From positions 32,001 through 96,000 of IMG/VR virus record IMGVR_UViG_3300025949_000001: a DNA stretch of 64,000 nt. The stretch is one strand, 5' to 3'. Positions within the stretch are counted from its first letter, which is position 1. Every line of letters begins with the position of its first letter. This DNA comes from a virus. This document shows, piece after piece, positions 5,162-53,931 of this stretch. Under the pieces are notes generated by a model. It did no database searches. It was not told where the DNA came from and was given only the letters and a program-made list of their open reading frames with translations. The position numbers and the translations under genes are program-made.

Positions 5162-6451
5162 ATGGCCGCGCAGCCCAGTGCAGAGCATGTCGTCCTAGCC
5201 GCTGCTGTGCTGCGCCGGGGCGACGAGCACCCCTGGTACGCGCCTTCTTCACACGCCTTCTTCACACGCCTGCTCGACCGGTTCGGGCGCACGGAGGCGT
5301 CCCGCATCTGGATCGAGGCCGTGCGGATCGTGGAGGCCGAGCACCCGCTCGACCCGCCGACACACTGCGCGCCGGACTGCGCCGGCTTCTGCGGCGAGTC
5401 GTACATCGACGAGGACTGCGCGCCCTGCCAGGAGCTCGAAGCGATCCGGTACCCGGCCGCCGAGAGCGGCCCGCACACGTGCGGATGCGGCGCGGTGATC
5501 CCCGCCGACCAGCACGAAGCAATTTTCGACCACATCGACCAGTGCCCGTCCGCCTGACGGCGCAGACCACGAAGGAGGCGCGCCGTGCGCCGCGAACTTG
5601 AGATCACGATCAGCCTGGGCAGCGGCTCCATCCGGGAGCGCGTCGCGCTGCCCGAGGGCTGGGACGAGATGACCGGCGAGGAGCAACTGGCCGCCATCGA
5701 CGAGGAGGCCGACACGATCATCTGGAACCGCAAGCACGTGACCGGCACCGTCGTGGAGGCGTCGGAGCGATGACCAACCCCATGGCGCCCACCAAGACCG
5801 AGCGCGCCCAGCGGATCGCCCTGAACGCTCGGGCGTTCGTCCGCAAGGCGCGACGCGACGGGCACACCAACCTGATCACCGGAATGCTGCTCGCCGAGTC
5901 CGCGCAGGCCTTGAAGCTGCTCGACACGGACGGCTGGACCATCCGCAAGGCCGCACGCCTGACCGTCGCAGAACTGGAGCAGGCGCAGGAGCTCGTGCGC
6001 GCCGAGGTGCCGGACCTGACCGTGTACGACGCGGACGGCCGCTACGTGCTCGACGGTCCCGGGCAGGCCCCGGTCTTCCACCTGGGCGGGTGGCGGTTCG
6101 GTGGCGGTAGCGCGTACAGCGCGCTGGTCGAGGTCGCGGACCTGCTGATCCTCAACCCGCGCACCGGACCGGGGGCCTGACATGCCCGCCCTCTCCCCCG
6201 CCCAACTCGCGGTCCTGCGCGCCGCGGCTCAGCGCAACGTGTGGGCCGACGCGACGCGCGAACCGGTGCGCTGGATGGTCGGCGCCGACGAAGACGCCCG
6301 GCCGGACACCCCCGCCGTGCAGTCCCTGATCGACGCCGGGCTGCTCGCCGATGACCGACGCGTGGCGGCCGACATCGGCACCTGGTGCTTCGCGACGCCG
6401 ACCCTCGCGGGCCGCGCCCTGCTCGACACCCTCAACCCGGAAGGCCGCTGA
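5162..6451 (+). CDS. Four hypothetical genes (5162-5557, 5585-5773, 5770-6180, 6182-6451)
   Basis: Abutting or overlapping start/stop codons; codon bias. Confidence 0.6.
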
Positions 6452-20181: not shown

Positions 20182-20664
20182 TCATGGCCGCACCGCCGCG
20201 GTACCCGCGCCCTCGACCCAGCCGGGCACGACCGTGACCGGGATTCCCTCGGACCGCCACAGCTCGACGATCGCCGGGTTGTCGTCGTACGCGTGCACCG
20301 GCCGGTACTGCTGCCGGATCTTCGCCAGGATCTCGCGCTTGACCACATGGTCGGGCCGGTAGTCTCCGTTCGCCCGCATCCACATCGCATCCGAGGGCAC
20401 GCCGTGCAGGGCGAGCCAGAACGCAGTGGAGTTGCGGAGCCGCGCCTCGCGCGCGGTCACGACCAGCACGGCGCGGGCCGCTGCGTGTTCGGCGCGGGCG
20501 GCGTCCACGACCCAGGCGTTCGGGGGGCAGTTGACGGCGTCGCGGTGGAACGCGTCGAAGTTCTTGCGGTAGCCGTTGGCGGGGCCGCCGAGTACGTGGT
20601 GCCGGATGGCGCGCACGTCGCACAGGGTGCCGTCCATGTCGAACAGGACCGCCTCGGGCAGCAT
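20182..20664 (-). CDS. HAD phosphatase (PNKP 3'-phosphatase-like)
   Basis: FDMDGTL, VTAR, RPDHVVK, YDDNP. Confidence 0.85.
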   Translation of the reverse strand: MLPEAVLFDMDGTLCDVRAIRHHVLGGPANGYRKNFDAFHRDAVNCPPNAWVVDAARAEHAAARAVLVVTAREARLRNSTAFWLALHGVPSDAMWMRANGDYRPDHVVKREILAKIRQQYRPVHAYDDNPAIVELWRSEGIPVTVVPGWVEGAGTAAVRP

Positions 20665-21626
20665 CAGGGCGCCGCCTTCGCGACGGTGTAGTGCTCGGCG
20701 CGCACGCGGTAGACGCCTCGGGCGACTCGGACCACGAACCCATCGTTGGCGGCGTCACTGAGGAGCTGGTACGCGGCGCCGAGCGTCTTTCCGGTTCGTT
20801 CGGCTAGCGACGGGGCCGTGATTGGGCCGATCCACCCGGCGAGCAACGCCCGATACTGCTTCGGCTGCGGCGTCCTGGCGCGTCGTGGCTGGCGCGGTTT
20901 CAGCGCCCTTCGCTTTCGCGACGTCTCACGTGCGCAGGCGCGGCAATAGCGTTGGCCGTCGTACCATCGCGTGTTTTCCTCGGTCCACTCATGGCCGCTG
21001 CCGCACGCTGTTGCCCGAGTCAGTGACTTCGTGGCCGCGACGGAAGCCGTGCGCTTCGCTATCCACTCGGGCGACTGCTTCCTGCCGCATAGGGAGTCGC
21101 TCCGCTTTCGCAGCGTCTTCGCGCTGGGTTTCTTTCCCATGTTCGCGGCGGACAACTTCGCGCGCGTCTCGGGCGACCTGGGTTTGCCAATCTTGGCTTG
21201 AGCACTCTTACGTACAGACTCGGATGCCATTCGCCATGTGCCCCCTGAGACGCCGCCCGTGGACAAGTTGAGCAACGGCGCACCCGCGAGTCGCAGGCGT
21301 TCGATGTGCCGCCTTTCGGCGGCGTCTAGGCCGGTAGCGGGTATTGGCCCCTCGATGAGGAGGATTCCCGGCACCGCGCCGGCCTCGGCGAGCTCGGCAA
21401 TCCAGCGGCATACGGGCCGGCTCGGCGAGCGGCGGTCCGCCAAATGCCCTTTCAGCCTGCGCTTCAGTGCTTGACGCGTCTGGCCGACGTACCGGATGGT
21501 CCCATCGATGTCGCGAAGCCCGTAAATGACGCCCATGCCAGGCGTCGGCTTCGCCCGTTCCGCGTCGCAGGAATCAGCTTGCATACATCTATTATCGCAG
21601 GTAGCGCCGACATTCCGAAGGTTCAT
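20664..21626 (-). CDS. GIY-YIG homing endonuclease with NUMOD3-like repeats
   Basis: VIYGLRD..IRYVGQT; SPETRAKLSAANMGK; start at 21626 (ATGA-coupled) or 21584 (leaderless). Confidence 0.85.
   Translation of the reverse strand: MNLRNVGATCDNRCMQADSCDAERAKPTPGMGVIYGLRDIDGTIRYVGQTRQALKRRLKGHLADRRSPSRPVCRWIAELAEAGAVPGILLIEGPIPATGLDAAERRHIERLRLAGAPLLNLSTGGVSGGTWRMASESVRKSAQAKIGKPRSPETRAKLSAANMGKKPSAKTLRKRSDSLCGRKQSPEWIAKRTASVAATKSLTRATACGSGHEWTEENTRWYDGQRYCRACARETSRKRRALKPRQPRRARTPQPKQYRALLAGWIGPITAPSLAERTGKTLGAAYQLLSDAANDGFVVRVARGVYRVRAEHYTVAKAAP
21591..21613 (-). promoter_or_regulatory. RecA-NDp/PafBC-type promoter motif for the GIY-YIG gene
   Basis: ATGTCGGCG-8 nt-GATAAT-6 nt-ATG. Confidence 0.5.
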
Positions 21627-22333
21627 GCGGCAGCTCGCGGAGCGATATAGTGCTGCGCCCGGACCCTCTTCAACCACCCCTCAACGACACCGTAACTCGG
21701 CTCATCGGGCAGCGCCGTCCTGGCTGCGTCGAAGGCTGCGACCGTCTCGGCAATCAGCTTCTCTGCGGCGGTCGGGTCCTTCGCGACCTGCTCGCCGAAG
21801 TCGAGGTACTGCTGCGGGTCCTCTAGGGCCACCGTCAACCTCCCCGAGGTGTAAAGCTCAAGACCTTGGCGGCTCAGGCGCAGTAGGTGGCGCGCATGTT
21901 TGGCCGTGCGCTTGCGAGTGTCCGCGCTGAAAGACCCGTCGCCCCGGTTGAGCAGTTTCCGGCACTGGGCGACCGCGTATCCGCAGTAGGCGTCCCTCAC
22001 CAGGCGGGCGCTCGGGAAGGCGCTGCGAATGCCGACCAGTTCATCGCCAAGCGCCGTCTTGATCTCGTAACTCTCAAGGAAGAGCAGTTCAAGGACGGTC
22101 GGGTTGGACTTGAGCATCAGCCTCGCAGCTTTGGCCGCCTCGTGATACGTCACGTCGGGTTTGGTGGTGACGATGGAGTCGTTGGGCGCGGTCAGGCCCA
22201 TGAACCGGGTGGTGGGCCAGGTGAACACGCCGAGCCGGTCGATGTCGGAGTCGGGTCCGGCCAGGCCGTACGCGGTGGAGCCGACGACGCCGGCCAGCAG
22301 AACGCGCATGTCGGACTCCTCGGCGGCCGTCAC
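21623..22333 (-). CDS. RlaP/YcgL-like nucleotidyltransferase (pol beta superfamily)
   Basis: VVGSTAYGLAGPDSDIDRLGVF; LKSNPTVLELL. Confidence 0.85.
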   Translation of the reverse strand: MTAAEESDMRVLLAGVVGSTAYGLAGPDSDIDRLGVFTWPTTRFMGLTAPNDSIVTTKPDVTYHEAAKAARLMLKSNPTVLELLFLESYEIKTALGDELVGIRSAFPSARLVRDAYCGYAVAQCRKLLNRGDGSFSADTRKRTAKHARHLLRLSRQGLELYTSGRLTVALEDPQQYLDFGEQVAKDPTAAEKLIAETVAAFDAARTALPDEPSYGVVEGWLKRVRAQHYIAPRAAA

Positions 22334-22875
22334 AGTGTGGTCTCCAGTTCGCGGATGTTGGCCGCCCACCCGGCGACCCGGTCCACGTCCTGCTGCCGGA
22401 TGCCGAGGCTGATGTGCAGCAGCAGCGTCGGGATGCCGTCCTCGGTGCGCGTTTTCGCCCACTCGAAGTCGCCGGGCTCGAAGTCGTCGTCCAGCCATGC
22501 GAACGCCCGCTCGCCGACGTACGCCTCGACGGCGTCGCGCTTCCAGATTTGGCCGAACGGGAACGGTCCACGCGAGGGGAACTCGATCACCGGCAGTTGC
22601 GGCAGGCCGACCACGGGCGCCACGAGCCGGTTCGCCGAGTGCTCCCAGGTGGTGGCCCAGGCCAGGTCTACCAGGTGGGTCAGGGCGAGCAGCATGGGTC
22701 CGTGCGCAGGGTTGAGCCAGACACGGATGGAGCGTTTGCCGCTCTGTGCCCAATGCCAGCCGTCCGCGCCGGTGCGGACATGCCGGGTGGTGTATCCGTC
22801 GGGCCGCTGGGTGGGTTTCGCGCCGTAGGGGTTAAGCGGTCCGTCTACGTCGAGCAGGAGCAGGGGTTTGGTCAC
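22330..22875 (-). CDS. HAD phosphatase, Swiss-army-knife RNA-repair type
   Basis: LLLDVDGPLN, WATTW, AWLDDD. Confidence 0.85.
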   Translation of the reverse strand: MTKPLLLLDVDGPLNPYGAKPTQRPDGYTTRHVRTGADGWHWAQSGKRSIRVWLNPAHGPMLLALTHLVDLAWATTWEHSANRLVAPVVGLPQLPVIEFPSRGPFPFGQIWKRDAVEAYVGERAFAWLDDDFEPGDFEWAKTRTEDGIPTLLLHISLGIRQQDVDRVAGWAANIRELETTL

Positions 22876-36248: not shown

Positions 36249-36539
36249 ATGCTCGCGATCACGCTCACACTGCTGGTTCTGGGCGCGCTGCTCGCCGCCT
36301 TCGGCACCGCCGGGTTCGCATTGAACTGGACGGCACCCGACCACGACAGCCTCCGGTACACCCAGGGCATCGCCAAGGCCGGGCGCCGGCTGTCCGCCGC
36401 CGGCCTGACGCTGTACGCCCTGCATTACGGCGCGAGCGGCCCGGCGCTGATTGCGCTGCTACTGGCCGCCGCGCTCGCACTCGCGACCTACCTCACTCGA
36501 ACAACGAGCACCTTATTGGCGGACGGTGGTGGCCGGTGA
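36249..36539 (+). CDS. Small membrane protein; last 16 codons supplied by the TnpB insertion
   Basis: Hydrophobic segments; GAAGGAGG RBS; TGA overlaps the tnpB GTG. Confidence 0.75.
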   Translation: MLAITLTLLVLGALLAAFGTAGFALNWTAPDHDSLRYTQGIAKAGRRLSAAGLTLYALHYGASGPALIALLLAAALALATYLTRTTSTLLADGGGR

Positions 36540-37786
36540 AGCAAGCAAAGAGGTTCCGGCTCTACCCGACGCCCACGCAGGAGCAGACCCTGCTCACGCA
36601 CTGCGCGCACGCCCGGTATGTGTGGAACCTGGCGATCGAGCAGCACTCCTGGTGGACGCCTCGGCGCGGACCTGCGCCGACGTTTGCGGCGCAGTGCCGC
36701 CAACTGACCGAGGCCCGCGCCGAGTTCGAATGGCTGCGCGAAGGCTCAGTAAACGTCCAGCAGCAGGCGCTGCGCGACTTCGACCAGGCTATGCGGCACT
36801 TTTTCAACCGTACCCACGGACGCCCCAGCTTCCGGAGTAAGCACCGCAACGAGGGGTTCCGCATCACCGACAGATGTGACGTGCAGAAACTCAACAGGCG
36901 CTGGGCGCAGGTGAGGATTCCCAAGATCGGATGGGTGCGCTTCCGGCTGTCCACGGCGCTCCTGCCGGACGCGAAGTCCTACCGGGTGACCTGCCGCAAC
37001 GGTCGGTGGCACGTGGCGTTCGCGGTCATTCCCGACCCGATCGAGCCGCCCGGTACCGGAGAACTGGTCGGGATCGACCGGGGCGTAACGATAACCGCCG
37101 CACTCTCGGACGGGCGCACCTTGAACTGCCCTCAGTCGAGCGTCAAAGAACAAGCCCGCGTTCGCAAGCATCAGCGTCGCGCAGCCCGCGCGCCGAAGGG
37201 CAGCGACGAGAAGGGCGCCGAGTACGCGCAAGTCGCCAAACTGAAGGCGCGCGAGGCGGACCGGCGCAAGGACTGGGTGGAGAAGACCAGCACGGATCTT
37301 GCGCGGCGTTTTGACCTGATCCGGTTCGAGAAGCTGAACATTCGGAACATGACCGCCTCGGCACGGGGAACCATCGAAGCGCCCGGCCGCAACGTCAGGC
37401 AGAAGTCCGGCCTGAACCGGGCGATCCTCGCCCAGGGCTGGGGGCAGCTTCGACTGCGCACCGGGCAAAAGGCGCCCGGCCGGGTTGAGGATGTCCCGGC
37501 GCCGTACACCTCGCTGCGATGCAGCGCCTGCGGGTGGATCGAGAAGGACTCGCGCAAGAGCCAAGCCGAGTTCGTCTGCGTGTCCTGCGGGTTCGCGTGC
37601 AACGCAGATGTGAATGCAGCAGTGAACGTCGCGGCGGGGCACGCCGCAGGGATGACGCCGTGCCAGCGGCCGAGCATCCGTGGACCTCGGCCCGTACGGG
37701 CCGGAATCCTGCCTAGAGCGCAGGAGGGTGCCAACTACCTGACCGCCACCACCAACACCATCGTCCCGAGCGGAGCCACGCCGTGA
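36536..37786 (+). CDS. tnpB: RNA-guided endonuclease TnpB (solitary, no TnpA)
   Basis: FRLYPT HTH; RuvC GIDRG / RFEKL / NADVNAA; CSAC-CVSC zinc ribbon. Confidence 0.95.
   Translation: MKQAKRFRLYPTPTQEQTLLTHCAHARYVWNLAIEQHSWWTPRRGPAPTFAAQCRQLTEARAEFEWLREGSVNVQQQALRDFDQAMRHFFNRTHGRPSFRSKHRNEGFRITDRCDVQKLNRRWAQVRIPKIGWVRFRLSTALLPDAKSYRVTCRNGRWHVAFAVIPDPIEPPGTGELVGIDRGVTITAALSDGRTLNCPQSSVKEQARVRKHQRRAARAPKGSDEKGAEYAQVAKLKAREADRRKDWVEKTSTDLARRFDLIRFEKLNIRNMTASARGTIEAPGRNVRQKSGLNRAILAQGWGQLRLRTGQKAPGRVEDVPAPYTSLRCSACGWIEKDSRKSQAEFVCVSCGFACNADVNAAVNVAAGHAAGMTPCQRPSIRGPRPVRAGILPRAQEGANYLTATTNTIVPSGATP
37600..37754 (+). ncRNA. Predicted omega/reRNA; scaffold ends about 37734, guide from 37735
   Basis: Hairpins ending GGAATCCTGC...GCAGGAGGGTGCCAA, resembling IS605 right ends; 5' boundary is a guess. 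Confidence 0.6.
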
Positions 37787-38409
37787 ACCTCATCCCCAAC
37801 CGCTGGCGCCGCGACCCGCGCCGGGCAGCCAAGAACATCTACTTCGCCATCGAAGAAAACCCCCGCACCGAGGCCGCCCGCGACACCCTGCGCCACAGCA
37901 GCGACCCCGCGCAGCGCTACCACGCCCTCGACTTCCTCGCCGAGCGCGAACTGAGCCTCTACCGCACCCACGACGGCGCGTTCGGCCACCAGCCCTGGGC
38001 TGACGACATCGCCGGGGACGCCGCGACCGGTCTCGCCTACGGCGTGATGGCCCTGCGGCTGCTGCGCGCCCTCGAATGGGGCCGCACGGCCCAGCGGTCC
38101 TGGCGCTCCCACTGGCAGCCGATCGCCTGGGGCCGCGTCGACCTCACCGCTGCCGAGCAGGCGCTCGCCGACGCGTGCGGCCCGCTGCTCGACCTGCTGT
38201 CCAACGAGGACCCGACCGAGATCGCGGTGCTGTACACGCGCCTGTGGATCGCCGCCTACCCGATCATCGGCGGCCAAGCGGCCGAATGGATCGCGGTGCT
38301 CGGCAACGACTGGCAGTGCCGCGCCGCCGGGGTGCAGGACGGCCCCGACACCATCCTCACGATCCCGGACGCCCGCTACAGCCCGGACGCCACCCCCAAC
38401 CCCGCATAG
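37783..38409 (+). CDS. Hypothetical protein
   Basis: GTGA-coupled; codon bias. Confidence 0.7.
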   Translation: MNLIPNRWRRDPRRAAKNIYFAIEENPRTEAARDTLRHSSDPAQRYHALDFLAERELSLYRTHDGAFGHQPWADDIAGDAATGLAYGVMALRLLRALEWGRTAQRSWRSHWQPIAWGRVDLTAAEQALADACGPLLDLLSNEDPTEIAVLYTRLWIAAYPIIGGQAAEWIAVLGNDWQCRAAGVQDGPDTILTIPDARYSPDATPNPA

Positions 38410-45079: not shown

Positions 45080-45408
45080 TGGGCGGCGGAAATCGGTCTC
45101 GGCCGCCCCGTGTTCGGGCGAGTGCACCTATCGCATTACGGCTTGTGGGCCCAGTGTTGCTCGCTTTTATGTTGCTCGCGGTGCTGCGCTTCGGGCGATA
45201 AGCGGGATGCAGTCTGCATCCCGGATTTCATGCGACGGCGAATAGGTCAAGCCCCGGCTAGTCCGGGTACTGCGTCGCTTCCCATGGCTGCGGCTTCGGC
45301 CGGAACGAGATCACATCCTGGCCGTCGCCCGTGTGGGTCCATTCGGAGCGGGCACCTGCCCCGCTGAATCTCAGTAAGTCTCAGTCCTTCTAGGCGTATA
45401 CTGGGCGA

Positions 45409-45978
45409 GTGAAGCTTTCGGAGTGGGCGCGCCGCGAAGGCGTGCACTACCAGACCGCGTGGGAGTGGGCGAAGAACGGGCGCATGCCCGTGCCCGCCTA
45501 CCAGACCCCGTCCGGGACATGGATGGTGCGCACCGAACCCGACGCGCCCACCGGGCGCGTCGTCGCCTACGCCCGCGTCTCCAGCGCCGACCAGAAGCCC
45601 GATCTCGAGCGCCAGGCCGGGCGCGTGGTGACGGGCGCGACCGCCCGAGGTCTCGCCGTCGCCGAAGTCGTCACCGAGATCGGTTCCGGACTGAACGGCG
45701 AGCGCCGCAAACTGCACCGGATCCTCGCCGACCCCACCGCCGCAGTGATCGTGGTCGAGCACCGCGACCGGCTCGCGCGCTTCGGTGTCGAGCATCTCGA
45801 TGCCGCCCTGCAAGCGAACGGCCGCCGCATCGTCGTCCTCGAACACGACGAGACCAGCGACGACCTCGTACGGGACGTGGCCGAGGTACTCACCTCGATG
45901 TGCGCCCGGCTGTACGGGCGCCGCTCCGCCAGGAACCGGGCCGCGCGCGGCATCGCCGCCGCGACGGGCGAGCGCTGA
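45409..45978 (+). CDS. tnpA: IS607 serine transposase
   Basis: N-terminal HTH; YARVSSADQKPDL; DRLARFG. Confidence 0.95.
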   Translation: MKLSEWARREGVHYQTAWEWAKNGRMPVPAYQTPSGTWMVRTEPDAPTGRVVAYARVSSADQKPDLERQAGRVVTGATARGLAVAEVVTEIGSGLNGERRKLHRILADPTAAVIVVEHRDRLARFGVEHLDAALQANGRRIVVLEHDETSDDLVRDVAEVLTSMCARLYGRRSARNRAARGIAAATGER

Positions 45979-45981
45979 TCC

Positions 45982-47361
45982 ATGGCCGTGCAGGCCTACC
46001 GGTTCGCCCTCGACCCGACGCCGGCCCAGGCGCGCAACCTCGCGCGGCATGCCGGCGCGGCGCGGGTCGCGTTCAACTGGGGACTCTCGGCGGTCAGGGC
46101 GAACTTGTCCCAGCGTGAGGCCGAACGCTTCTACGGCATCGACGGCGACGACCTTACCCCGGCGCTTGGCTGGTCGATGTATGCGCTGCGCAAGGCCTGG
46201 AACCAAGCCAAGGGCGACATAGCTCCATGGTGGTCGGAATGCTCGAAAGAGGCGTACGCCAGCGGGCTGGAGCAACTCGCCCGCGCGTTGAAGAACTGGT
46301 CCGACTCCAAACGCGGCAAGCGCGCCGGCCGACCGGTCGGGTTCCCGCGGTTCAAGGCGAAGCGTCGCGCTGCGCCGTCGGTGAGATTCACTACCGGGAC
46401 AATCCGCGTCGAAGCCGACCGCATGCACGTGACGCTGCCGGTGCTGGGCCGGATCAAGACGCACGAGTCCACGCGCAAATTGGAGCGCAGGGTCGCGAAC
46501 GGCACCGCGCGGATCCTGTCCGCGACCGTGCGCCTTGAGGCGGCCCGCTGGTTCGTCGCGTTCACCGTCGAAATCCGGCGACCCGAGAAGTCCCCGCGCC
46601 GACCGGACGCGGTAGTCGGCGTCGACCTGGGAATCAAGACGCTGGCCGTCCTGTCCGAGGGCGAGCCGGTCGGGAACTCGCGGTACTACGATGCGGCGCG
46701 CCGGAAGTTGGCCCGCACCTCGCGCACCGTTTCGCGCCGCCAAGGACCGGACCGGCGCACCGGGCAGGCCCCTTCTAGCCGGTGGGTGCGGGCGAACGCC
46801 GCGCGCAACAGAGTCCACCGCCGGGTTGGAAACCTGCGCCGCGACGGGATCCACAAACTCACCACCGCGCTGGCCCGCGAGTACGGCACGGTCGTGGTCG
46901 AGGACCTGAACGTCGCCGGGATGGTCCGCAACCGGCGGCTCGCACGCGCGATCTCCGACGCCGGGTTCGGCGAGATTCGCCGCCAGTTGGCGTATAAGGC
47001 GGCGTGGAACGGCGGCCGGCTCGCCGTGGCGGACCGCTGGTTTCCCAGTTCCAAGACGTGCTCGGGCTGCGGGGCAGTGAAACCCAAACTGTCCCTGGCC
47101 GAGCGCACCTACACCTGCATCGAATGCGGACTGGTCTTGGATCGGGACCTGAACGCGGCGCTCAACCTCAAGCAGTTGGTTGAGCGCACCGTCGCCGGGA
47201 GTGGCCCGGAGACGTTAAACGGACGTGGAGCCGACCGTAAGACCAGCGTGCTGGCAGGTGGCCGTGAAGCGTCTACCCCGCACCCGGCTCTCGCCGGGGT
47301 AAGACGGGGACTCTTGCCGGGCAACCGGCAAGTCCTAGGCAGGCATTCGCTGAAACTCTAG
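45982..47361 (+). CDS. tnpB: IS607 RNA-guided endonuclease TnpB
   Basis: GVDLG, VVEDL, DRDLNAA; zinc ribbon. Confidence 0.95.
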   Translation: MAVQAYRFALDPTPAQARNLARHAGAARVAFNWGLSAVRANLSQREAERFYGIDGDDLTPALGWSMYALRKAWNQAKGDIAPWWSECSKEAYASGLEQLARALKNWSDSKRGKRAGRPVGFPRFKAKRRAAPSVRFTTGTIRVEADRMHVTLPVLGRIKTHESTRKLERRVANGTARILSATVRLEAARWFVAFTVEIRRPEKSPRRPDAVVGVDLGIKTLAVLSEGEPVGNSRYYDAARRKLARTSRTVSRRQGPDRRTGQAPSSRWVRANAARNRVHRRVGNLRRDGIHKLTTALAREYGTVVVEDLNVAGMVRNRRLARAISDAGFGEIRRQLAYKAAWNGGRLAVADRWFPSSKTCSGCGAVKPKLSLAERTYTCIECGLVLDRDLNAALNLKQLVERTVAGSGPETLNGRGADRKTSVLAGGREASTPHPALAGVRRGLLPGNRQVLGRHSLKL

Positions 47362-47748
47362 GAACGGTCGCGCTCCCAGTCCTCGCCGAACACCAGCTCG
47401 TGGCTCGGCACGCCAAGCTGGCTCACTAGGAACAGCACCTGCGTCGGGGCCTCACGCGGCGTCTCGTCGGGCTCGACCTTGAACAGCGCGTCGATCGGCC
47501 CTTCCGGGAAGGCCACCGAGCAGCGTGCGGGCGGCATGGTCGCCCCGTCGCGCAACCTGATGTCTACGGATCGCGAGAGGTTGGCGTCGGTCTGCTGCGC
47601 GAGCAAGCCGAGGGCTGTTTCCAGTGGCGAGCGCAGCACCATCTCGACGCGCGTGCTGTCGATCAACGCGGTGGGGGCCGGGCCAGGCGACCGTCAGGAG
47701 CATCTCGCGGGACGGGGTGAGGGGCATGGCTCAAGTGTCTCGCACGAC

Positions 47749-53436: not shown

Positions 53437-53931
53437 ATGGCTGCTATAGGGGGCGCTTACACGCCCATCAGCACCGAACGGCGCTTCGCCCTCAAGGTGG
53501 ACAAGACGGGCGAAGGTGGCTGTTGGAACTGGACAGGGAAGATCAATGAGGGCGGATACGGGATCTTCACGATCAAGCACCACACCTTGCGCGCCCATCG
53601 AATCGCCTGGGAGTGGCATCATGCACTGCCGATTCCCGAGGGGCAGATCATCCGCCACATGTGCGATAACAGGCGCTGCGTGAACCCGTCCCACCTGGTT
53701 GCCGGGACGTATTCCGACAACAACGCCGACGCCGTGCGTCGGCAGCGCGCCGCGACGCTGGTTGGCGAGAAGGTGCCGTCGGCCAAACTGACCGTAGACA
53801 AAGTGCAGTGGGCTCGCCAGCAGTTCGATTCTGGGACGATGAGCAAGACGGCAATCGCCCGTGAACTCGATGTCGCACCAACGACGATCGATGCCGTCGT
53901 GTTGCGCAAGAGTTGGAAGCACGTCAAATAA
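53437..53931 (+). CDS. HNH homing endonuclease
   Basis: [35 protein letters not shown]. Confidence 0.9.

Follow-up and report, generated by a model that had tools for sequence, protein, structure and literature searches.

A TnpB cassette in a soil phage splits a membrane protein gene and carries a replacement for its end

A tnpB gene lies between two versions of one gene end

The stretch of DNA analysed here (the window; 64,000 nucleotides) comprises bases 32001-96000 of the complete 115,995-bp IMG/VR record IMGVR_UViG_3300025949_000001, the genome of a soil (rhizosphere) phage with direct terminal repeats and ~70% G+C. Within it, a cassette encoding a TnpB protein interrupts gene X, which codes for a small membrane protein of 96 amino acids (36249-36539; plus strand, as are all cassette features and flanking genes given below). 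Gene X is an open reading frame (ORF) with 28 homologues of 93-102 amino acids, and no Pfam family was matched. The insertion point lies 16 codons upstream of the end of the gene, and the final codons are provided by an element-borne replacement tail (T', 36488-36539, YLTRTTSTLLADGGGR and stop) that is missing from empty alleles and occupies the position of an insertion sequence (IS) left end. The gene X TGA (36537-36539) overlaps the GTG of tnpB (36536). The tnpB ORF (36536-37786, 416 amino acids) has no stop codon of its own: its frame passes ...GGAGGGTGCCAA / ...GAGGGTGCCAA (end at 37734) and then runs into YLTATTNTIVPSGATP, the displaced original tail of gene X (T, 37735-37786), which is translated in frame up to its TGA. 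This TGA is overlapped by the GTG of the downstream gene Y (37783-38409), whose 208-residue product belongs to no family; 19 homologues of Y, at 57-70% identity, are present in metagenomes. The locus is thus laid out as X body, candidate target-adjacent motif (TAM, ..GAC), T', tnpB, omega-RNA scaffold, T (the original tail, and predicted guide) and Y.

T' and T comprise 16 codons each and have 7 of 16 residues in common, T' being ~59% identical to T. An initial annotation, made from the sequence alone, had pointed to a gene X tail in atypical codons, to TGA/GTG overlaps on both sides and to two tails of equal length with seven identical residues, the second with normal G+C at third codon positions (GC3); ORFs and codon counts bear this out. 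The homology starts at 36488 / 37735 (CTACCT, with its first C as third base of Thr80) and not, as given at first, one base later at 36489 / 37736. The insert spans 36488-37734 (1247 bp), or lies up to 6 nt further to the right. Seven codons of T' are rare ones (ACT, CGA, ACA, TTA, TTG and two GGT), and its GC3 is 10/16 versus 15/16 for T; values of 10/16 or lower occur in 4.4% of 16-codon windows, and TTA is found once in 4812 codons. With the two CTACCT codons excluded, 5 of 14 in-register residues are identical, a figure reached by 0.27% of the window's random coding 14-mers. The resemblance of T' and T is therefore beyond chance.

A promoter scan found none, which is weak evidence since streptomycete promoters match the consensus poorly. 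As a separate observation, T' places a TTA codon (36513-36515) in the membrane protein gene. Decoding of TTA in Streptomyces depends on the bldA tRNA.

The TnpB protein and its right end are conserved

TnpB contains, in order, the Pfam domains HTH_OrfB_IS605, OrfB_IS605 (RuvC) and a Cas12f1-like TNB zinc ribbon (E 1e-10 to 6e-15, above the cut-off), and ISDra2 TnpB structures align to its residues 6-390 (E 9e-23). The RuvC D-E-D triad, noted as intact in the initial annotation, corresponds to D181, E265 and D358, which are invariant in the clade together with the zinc cysteines C329/C332/C348/C351; the motifs GIDRG, FEKLN and NADVNAA align with solved TnpB. A nuclease-dead TnpB-like repressor (TldR) was ruled out, all three RuvC acidic residues being kept. 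The closest cellular relatives are Streptomyces proteins at 62-67% identity. Among the closest database proteins, P0021, encoded on a 44-kb metagenome contig (L013), is 86% identical and P0022-P0025 are 73-77% identical; matches in a set of 50,697 reference phage records are all below 60% identity.

Comparison of the window and L013 tnpB genes outside the last 33 codons gives a synonymous divergence (dS) of 0.75 and a ratio of non-synonymous to synonymous divergence (dN/dS) of 0.12, while the last 33 codons show a low dS of 0.25 and a dN/dS of ~1. This indicates constraint at the RNA level at the 3' end of tnpB and at the protein level elsewhere. The 3' end overlaps the predicted omega-RNA scaffold region (37586-37734, 5' limit approximate), which ends ...GAGGGTGCCAA. 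A right-end motif, GAGGAYGYCAA, was found in 132 of 189 scanned loci of the family, 138-189 nt past the CxxC..NAD motif where located (93 at one locus), and the DNA 3' of it is unrelated between loci. In a 31-member alignment, the hairpin next to this end shows compensatory changes in about 12 of the 31 sequences, with two pairs that are each altered on both sides in 12 sequences. The window keeps the terminal hairpin and ends ..GCCAA like L013 and several other members. No omega-RNA family was matched in Rfam, where the single match (snoU83B) is due to chance, and a single-sequence RNA fold was not significant (z -1.3), the alignment being relied on instead.

The omega RNA of TnpB is made by the protein from its own mRNA (PMC10278001), and TnpB cuts DNA that carries a TAM and matches the guide (PMC8612924). 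Given this established biology and a right end at 37734, the guide is predicted to begin at 37735. The candidate template, CTACCTGACCGCCACC (37735-37750, with the 16-nt length assumed from ISDra2), has no other match at up to one mismatch within the window. The original tail of gene X, proposed as guide from the outset, does adjoin the family-wide right end.

Even coverage of the locus was seen in the source rhizosphere sequencing run. Identical pieces (36694-36925, 37174-37417, 37953-38097) occur in Logan contigs of two other metagenomes, from soil (2021) and drinking water (2024), and cover tnpB and in one case also Y; the carrier phage or the cassette is thus not confined to the source rhizosphere. 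No empty-allele joint was found in the Logan metagenome contigs, which cannot reveal rare variants. The cassette might be a decaying relic of a single arrival, with TnpB or its RNA no longer functional. Such decay would fit the right-end motif, which departs twice from the family consensus (GAGGGTGCCAA versus GAGGATGTCAA). We nevertheless consider a relic very improbable, as the 416-residue frame is open with its catalytic and zinc residues present and a low dN/dS, the terminal hairpin and the ..GCCAA end are retained, and the identical pieces come from metagenomes of other years.

Uninterrupted gene X alleles match the predicted guide

An empty allele had been predicted from the two flanks of the cassette, and the junction GCGAC|CTACCTGACCGCCACC is indeed present verbatim in two IMG/VR relatives, L009 (the complete 109.5-kb phage G001) and L010 (G002), in whose genomes no TnpB was found encoded. 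Both contain an uninterrupted gene X homologue ending in YLTATTNVIVPSGATP with the same GTGA overlap. Directly after GCGAC they match 37735-37756, i.e. 22 nt consisting of the 16-nt guide and the next 6. The candidate TAM, GCGAC (36483-36487), is hence the same 5 nt that precede the target in both relatives. G001 is a mosaic relative, with the X body 84% identical, later genes 90% and T 94.5% over 55 nt; the flanks around this 55-nt match are otherwise unrelated and another gene stands in the place of Y.

The consensus tail of the 28 gene X homologues is YLT(R/A/K)T(S/T)N.I(V/I)P(T/A)GA... In the window T', YLTRTT is a common natural variant, and the following ..STLLADGGGR is unique and displaces a nearly invariant Ile, making T' an outlier among the 28 natural tails. 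The initial annotation had described a recoded replacement C-terminus; the spare tail is confirmed, though in the window it is a long-diverged member of the natural tails, half changed at the protein level, rather than a lightly recoded copy of T. A near-pristine T next to a strongly diverged T' speaks for a travelled cassette that entered a naive allele. An origin of T' by duplication in situ was rejected on the same grounds.

No other occurrence of an exact 21-mer of T' was found in IMG/VR. A search of IMG/VR for the junction of right end and T gave seven matches, all chance ANYLTA-coding stretches in unrelated genes without homology to the element. Neither megablast nor tblastn against the reference phages turned up a relative of this locus or of gene Y.

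A sister cassette interrupts a different gene

The L013 cassette has the same layout as that of the window but splits another gene, which encodes an LPD29 domain. The interrupted gene ends in LLILNPRTGPGA, tnpB begins directly after the TGA, and the right end ..GAGGATGCCAA leads into LLILNPTAGARPGA in the tnpB frame and then to the next gene. L013 and the window phage have other genes in common, namely an LPD29-domain gene and a STAS-domain gene. The conserved mobile core extends from tnpB codon 7 to the right end (36554-37734, 82% nucleotide identity; in blastn, window 36554-37736 corresponds to L013 2504-3690). To the left of codon 7, the two cassettes have nothing in common, and the first six tnpB codons are site-specific. 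At both sites tnpB is in frame with T, although the right-end frame differs between them.

Empty alleles of the L013 site were found in a 202-kb IMG/VR contig (L193) and in the window's own genome. The latter, an uninterrupted LPD29-domain allele (6142-6180, plus strand) again ending in LLILNPRTGPGA, follows CGGAC and matches the L013 guide exactly over 18 nt. SGAC precedes the target at both cassette sites, with five alleles showing GCGAC, CGGAC or CCGAC before exact matches of 18-22 nt (CGGAC and CCGAC at the L013 site and its empty alleles). The two sites thus point to a TAM that is probably ..SGAC, with GAC as the common core. As the window genome carries an exact L013-guide target after CGGAC, the window phage and L013 lineages could attack each other at different genes.

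The L013 T' peptide is the same as that of the window's natural LPD29-gene allele, from which its DNA differs by six synonymous changes: CTG>CTC, ATC>ATT, CTC>TTG (two), CCG>CCT and GCC>GCT. Five of the six fall in the first 18 nt, which form the predicted guide, and one in the 21 nt beyond. All three natural copies (window, L193 and the displaced tail of L013) agree throughout these 18 nt, and all five changes depart from the codons that the natural copies have in common. For clustering of at least five changes in 18 nt, a Poisson estimate with the distal rate as expectation gives P ~0.002. Mismatches of T' to its own guide lie at positions 6, 9, 10 and 12 in L013 and at positions 7, 10, 11, 12, 13 and 16 in the window. 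This pattern is what selection for immunity of the TAM-adjacent copy would produce. Recoded duplication in a close TnpB homologue, suggested in the initial annotation as something to look for, is therefore seen in L013 relative to the natural allele, and is concentrated where it matches the guide. Recurrence of the window's 48-nt left segment at an unrelated site, which the same annotation named as evidence to the contrary, was not observed: the L013 left segment differs and mimics the tail of its own target.

The divergence of T' could also have arisen with no role for TnpB targeting, either because it prevents direct-repeat recombination that would delete the cassette, or because T' is foreign DNA that came in by ordinary mosaic recombination where a nuclease gene marks the boundary. 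In phages, nuclease genes are known to be found at the borders of exchanged segments (PMC10448857). The differences between T' and T in the window extend over all 51 nt instead of being confined to the guide segment, and the spare tail of a GIY-YIG cassette in the same genome (see below) is likewise low in GC3. On the other hand, T' and T of L013 represent different natural alleles in their distal parts anyway, and the extra synonymous changes nevertheless lie in the 18 nt that would otherwise match the guide, a length short for recombination and exactly that of a TnpB target. At both sites, moreover, the first nucleotide of T is the one that follows the TAM. An explanation of this kind accordingly seems quite improbable.

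The cassette lacks the hallmarks of an IS200/IS605 element

In ordinary members of the family, 100-290 nt of left end are conserved, with TCA(Y) as the flank. The window cassette has no conserved left end and no subterminal hairpin, the features by which an IS200/IS605 left end is recognised. A PF01797 search for the Y1 (HUH) transposase TnpA was empty for the complete 115,995-bp record and positive in control genomes. It could be argued that the cassette is an ordinary non-autonomous IS200/IS605 (IS1341-type) insertion mobilised by a host TnpA in trans, with the left 48 nt as its left end and the likeness to T due to chance. The right end and TnpB are indeed typical of a large actinobacterial IS family (with the Streptomyces copies at 62-67% identity), and comparison with the empty allele shows a precise insertion. 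However, there is no left-end hairpin, nothing left of codon 7 is common to the window and its 86% identical sister, as against the long left end of ordinary members, and both cassettes mimic the tail of their own target in register from the junction. The probability of such likeness by chance is 0.3% if the window is taken by itself, and drops much further once L013 is included, in which both LLILNP and the whole peptide are reproduced. Insertion as an ordinary IS is hardly tenable, and already contradicted by these comparisons.

An unconstrained, codon-aware nine-frame scan of 113 non-redundant loci for resemblance between the two flanks gave a score of 39 for the window (P 0.005) and of 34 for L013 (P 0.02), both against cross-locus controls. 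Among the eleven top-scoring loci inspected, only the window and L013 matches begin at the right-end junction; other high-scoring matches, including those of L060, L045 and L145, do not start there, look like low-complexity chance and were discarded. At the nucleotide level, a repeat test gave the window pair a score of 14, no better than controls. This test misses the pair because the copy is recoded, and only the codon-aware test detects it.

Two other phage-borne loci show related features. L005 (2945-2960, 4245-4260) encodes a TnpB of 55% identity without a normal left end and flanked by an exact 16-nt direct repeat of its predicted guide, the left copy of which is preceded by CTCA, compatible with the family's TCA-type TAM. 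In L107 (2383-2400, 3767-3810; TnpB of 48% identity) the right-end motif GGGAGGGTGCCAA is doubled, with the copies 17 nt apart and resembling a mini-array of one spacer. The 17 nt correspond to the ribosome binding site and ATG of a minus-strand helix-turn-helix (HTH) gene, and a diverged copy is located at the left end of the element; L107 may represent a 'head replacement'. Both loci are suggestive of further phage-borne members of this layout.

Several ordinary chromosomal members (L060, L048, L045, L062, L031 and L049) adjoin the ATG of a divergent host gene. Their flank ends in TCAT, and the TAM thus overlaps the host start codon. A divergent 50-residue ribbon-helix-helix gene and an inverted repeat lie directly upstream of tnpB in L002, L003, L007, L017, L019, L067 and L127. 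This gene corresponds to the Arc repressor reported in recent work on IS605 elements (bioRxiv 10.64898/2026.09.24.754181) and is missing from the window cassette.

Proposed mechanism of homing and rescue

We consider it probable that the locus represents a TnpB/omega-RNA cassette without left end or transposase that behaves as an intronless homing endonuclease gene and whose rescue tail is immune to targeting. Cleavage, the TAM, self-immunity and copying are inferred, on the basis of established TnpB biology. In the proposed mechanism, tnpB would be translated by coupling to gene X, and TnpB would process its own transcript to an omega RNA with the last ~16 nt copied from T. Upon co-infection, the complex would cut rival phage genomes in which X is uninterrupted (TAM plus T). 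Repair from the cassette-bearing genome, using X body / T' as left homology and T plus what follows as right homology, would then copy the cassette into the rival. The resident genome would be safe, given that T is preceded by ..CCAA instead of the TAM and that the TAM-adjacent T' is re-spelled in the seed. T' would keep X at full length, and a tnpB that ends at the old stop of X would keep the coupling to Y, so that the cost to the phage would be small.

The cassette has moved to a new site at least once, with no transposon left end to assist it. Our preferred guess is that the first T' was acquired by capture of a drive-resistant or foreign allele, through illegitimate recombination just inside the tnpB start, a position favoured because the first six tnpB codons are site-specific.

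The same anatomy would equally suit an RNA-guided exclusion weapon, i.e. a cassette fixed in the lineage whose TnpB mainly destroys co-infecting relatives with an uninterrupted X (localized marker exclusion), with the benefit going to the carrier and copying rare or incidental. Exact targets in TnpB-free relatives and purifying selection on TnpB agree with this, as does the outcome of exact searches of IMG/VR, in which a second genome with the cassette at the X site was not found. In a co-infection, however, the other genome normally serves as repair template for a break beside homologous DNA, which makes exclusion and homing hard to separate, and the pristine T beside a travelled T' suggests an actual invasion event. 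A role chiefly in exclusion is rather unlikely.

Several points weigh against homing with rescue. The exact IMG/VR searches, which may not cover closely related records, found no second genome occupied at the X site that would document spread by homing. The SGAC motif deduced from two sites differs from the TCA(Y) of ordinary members. The window T' is diverged over its whole length and partly at the protein level. Some of this divergence must have a different cause, for which foreign origin, avoidance of T'/T recombination and relaxed constraint are candidates. Both T' copies keep the first 5-6 nt past the TAM unaltered. Finally, a cassette without a left end would have to gain a new T'/T pair by some other means.

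A wider proposal is made tentatively, and we would call it possible rather than probable: the window and L013 cassettes may belong to an actinophage class of TnpB cassettes that has given up transposition for RNA-guided cleave-and-rescue homing. The target of each would be written in the displaced gene end, with a seed-recoded spare end possibly derived from drive-resistant alleles; retargeting would occur without transposase, and cassettes would target each other's carriers. If true, a network of natural RNA-guided gene drives would shape phage mosaicism.

Relation to known systems

TnpB of IS200/IS605 elements with an omega RNA (reRNA), of the ISDra2 type, has been characterised as a guided nuclease (Karvelis 2021, PMC8612924) with a role in homing (Meers et al., bioRxiv 10.1101/2023.03.14.532601). 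The window cassette resembles it in protein family, domain order, RuvC D-E-D, zinc finger and a scaffold over the 3' end of tnpB, as well as in a predicted guide that comes from the DNA immediately beyond the right end and a predicted empty-site target beside a short motif. It differs by the lack of a left end, of a Y1 TnpA in cis or in the genome, and of a start region of its own, by the copy of the target-gene tail in place of the left end, and by a presumed TAM of SGAC rather than TCA(Y). Furthermore, its likely target is the allele of a rival genome, whereas for IS200/IS605 it is the sister chromatid after excision.

TnpB has been shown experimentally to drive the spread of IS in multicopy plasmids independently of TnpA (Mears et al. 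2025, PMC11870625), named 'transposon non-restorative homing' in a review (PMC13565253). As proposed here for the phage, IS-free copies of the same replicon are cut, and inheritance of the element-bearing copy is biased. The plasmid work concerned complete IS elements in the laboratory with no rescue sequence, and mentioned phages only as a theoretical case. The window cassette, by contrast, is natural, resides in a phage, lacks transposition parts and repairs the gene it splits.

The layout itself has a precedent in the mobile ORF (mORF) 'gene hybrids' of fungal mitochondria, found in Glomus atp6, atp9, cox2 and nad3 (PMC3630166) and, as cited there from Paquin et al. 1994, in Allomyces atp6. 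These consist of a gene body, an inserted foreign C-terminus, an endonuclease ORF (sometimes in phase) and the native C-terminus downstream. It is the native copy that resembles relatives, whereas the inserted one has diverged, as in the window and likewise in L013. The nucleases of mORFs are protein-guided LAGLIDADG or GIY-YIG enzymes and that of the window is TnpB, for which the displaced native end is the predicted guide-RNA template and not only a relic. Free-standing phage homing endonucleases with intronless homing, of the SegF/MobE type (reviewed in PMC13565253 and PMC2988022), are similar in that the nuclease gene stands between conserved phage genes, is polymorphic for presence, and self-protection relies on differences near the insertion. 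They recognise DNA by protein and are inserted between genes, in contrast to the probable RNA recognition of the window cassette and its position inside a gene with a rescue tail.

A further parallel is the synthetic cleave-and-rescue (ClvR) drive, in which a nuclease destroys the wild-type allele and is linked to a recoded, uncuttable rescue; such drives are man-made, target an essential gene in trans and are not copied by homing. In the window cassette the rescue comprises only the last 16 codons of the gene, and the element sits in the target itself. No paper describing TnpB cassettes with replacement gene ends was found in the literature, and homing by TnpB from one phage to another is regarded as theoretical in a 2026 review (PMC13565253).

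If correct, the homing proposal would provide natural evidence that TnpB, the Cas12 ancestor, lives as a pure RNA-guided homing endonuclease without transposase, TnpA-free homing having until now been known from complete IS elements in laboratory plasmids and been theoretical for phages. It would show how two problems met with in engineered gene drives have been solved in nature, namely rescue of the disrupted gene and protection of the carrier, the latter by seed recoding. The L013/window pair would offer a direct readout of the guide positions changed by selection, and a route for guide exchange without transposition would bear on how TnpB-like nucleases became programmable immune effectors. 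Each such cassette would also supply a ready triple of TAM candidate, guide and non-target control for a new high-GC TnpB.

Other mobile genes in the same genome

The initial annotation had called the TnpB solitary. This applies to the cassette, which has no transposase with it in a genome devoid of Y1 TnpA, but not to the phage as a whole: a separate canonical IS607 element (45347-47365) with a serine recombinase tnpA (45409-45978) and a tnpB (45982-47361) is located 9 kb away. Its TnpB is 30% identical to that of the cassette and belongs to a different lineage. The element is a clean 2019-bp insertion relative to G001 (junctions ..cattcgg|agcggg and ..gaacgg|tcgcgc) with no replacement tail. 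Membership of the window cassette in IS607 was considered and dismissed, there being no serine-recombinase tnpA directly upstream of its tnpB.

A gene encoding GIY-YIG and NUMOD3 domains (20664-22753, minus strand) displays the same order of spare tail, nuclease and displaced tail. Here an RlaP-like gene ends in RVRAQHYIAPRAAA in low-GC3 codons, and the GIY-YIG ORF continues into RVRAEHYTVAKAAP, with its TGA overlapping the next ATG. In G001 the two genes that flank it are adjacent and the nuclease is missing, corresponding to the empty arrangement. An HNH_3 homing-type endonuclease gene (53437-53931) is also present in the window, on the strand opposite to its neighbours.

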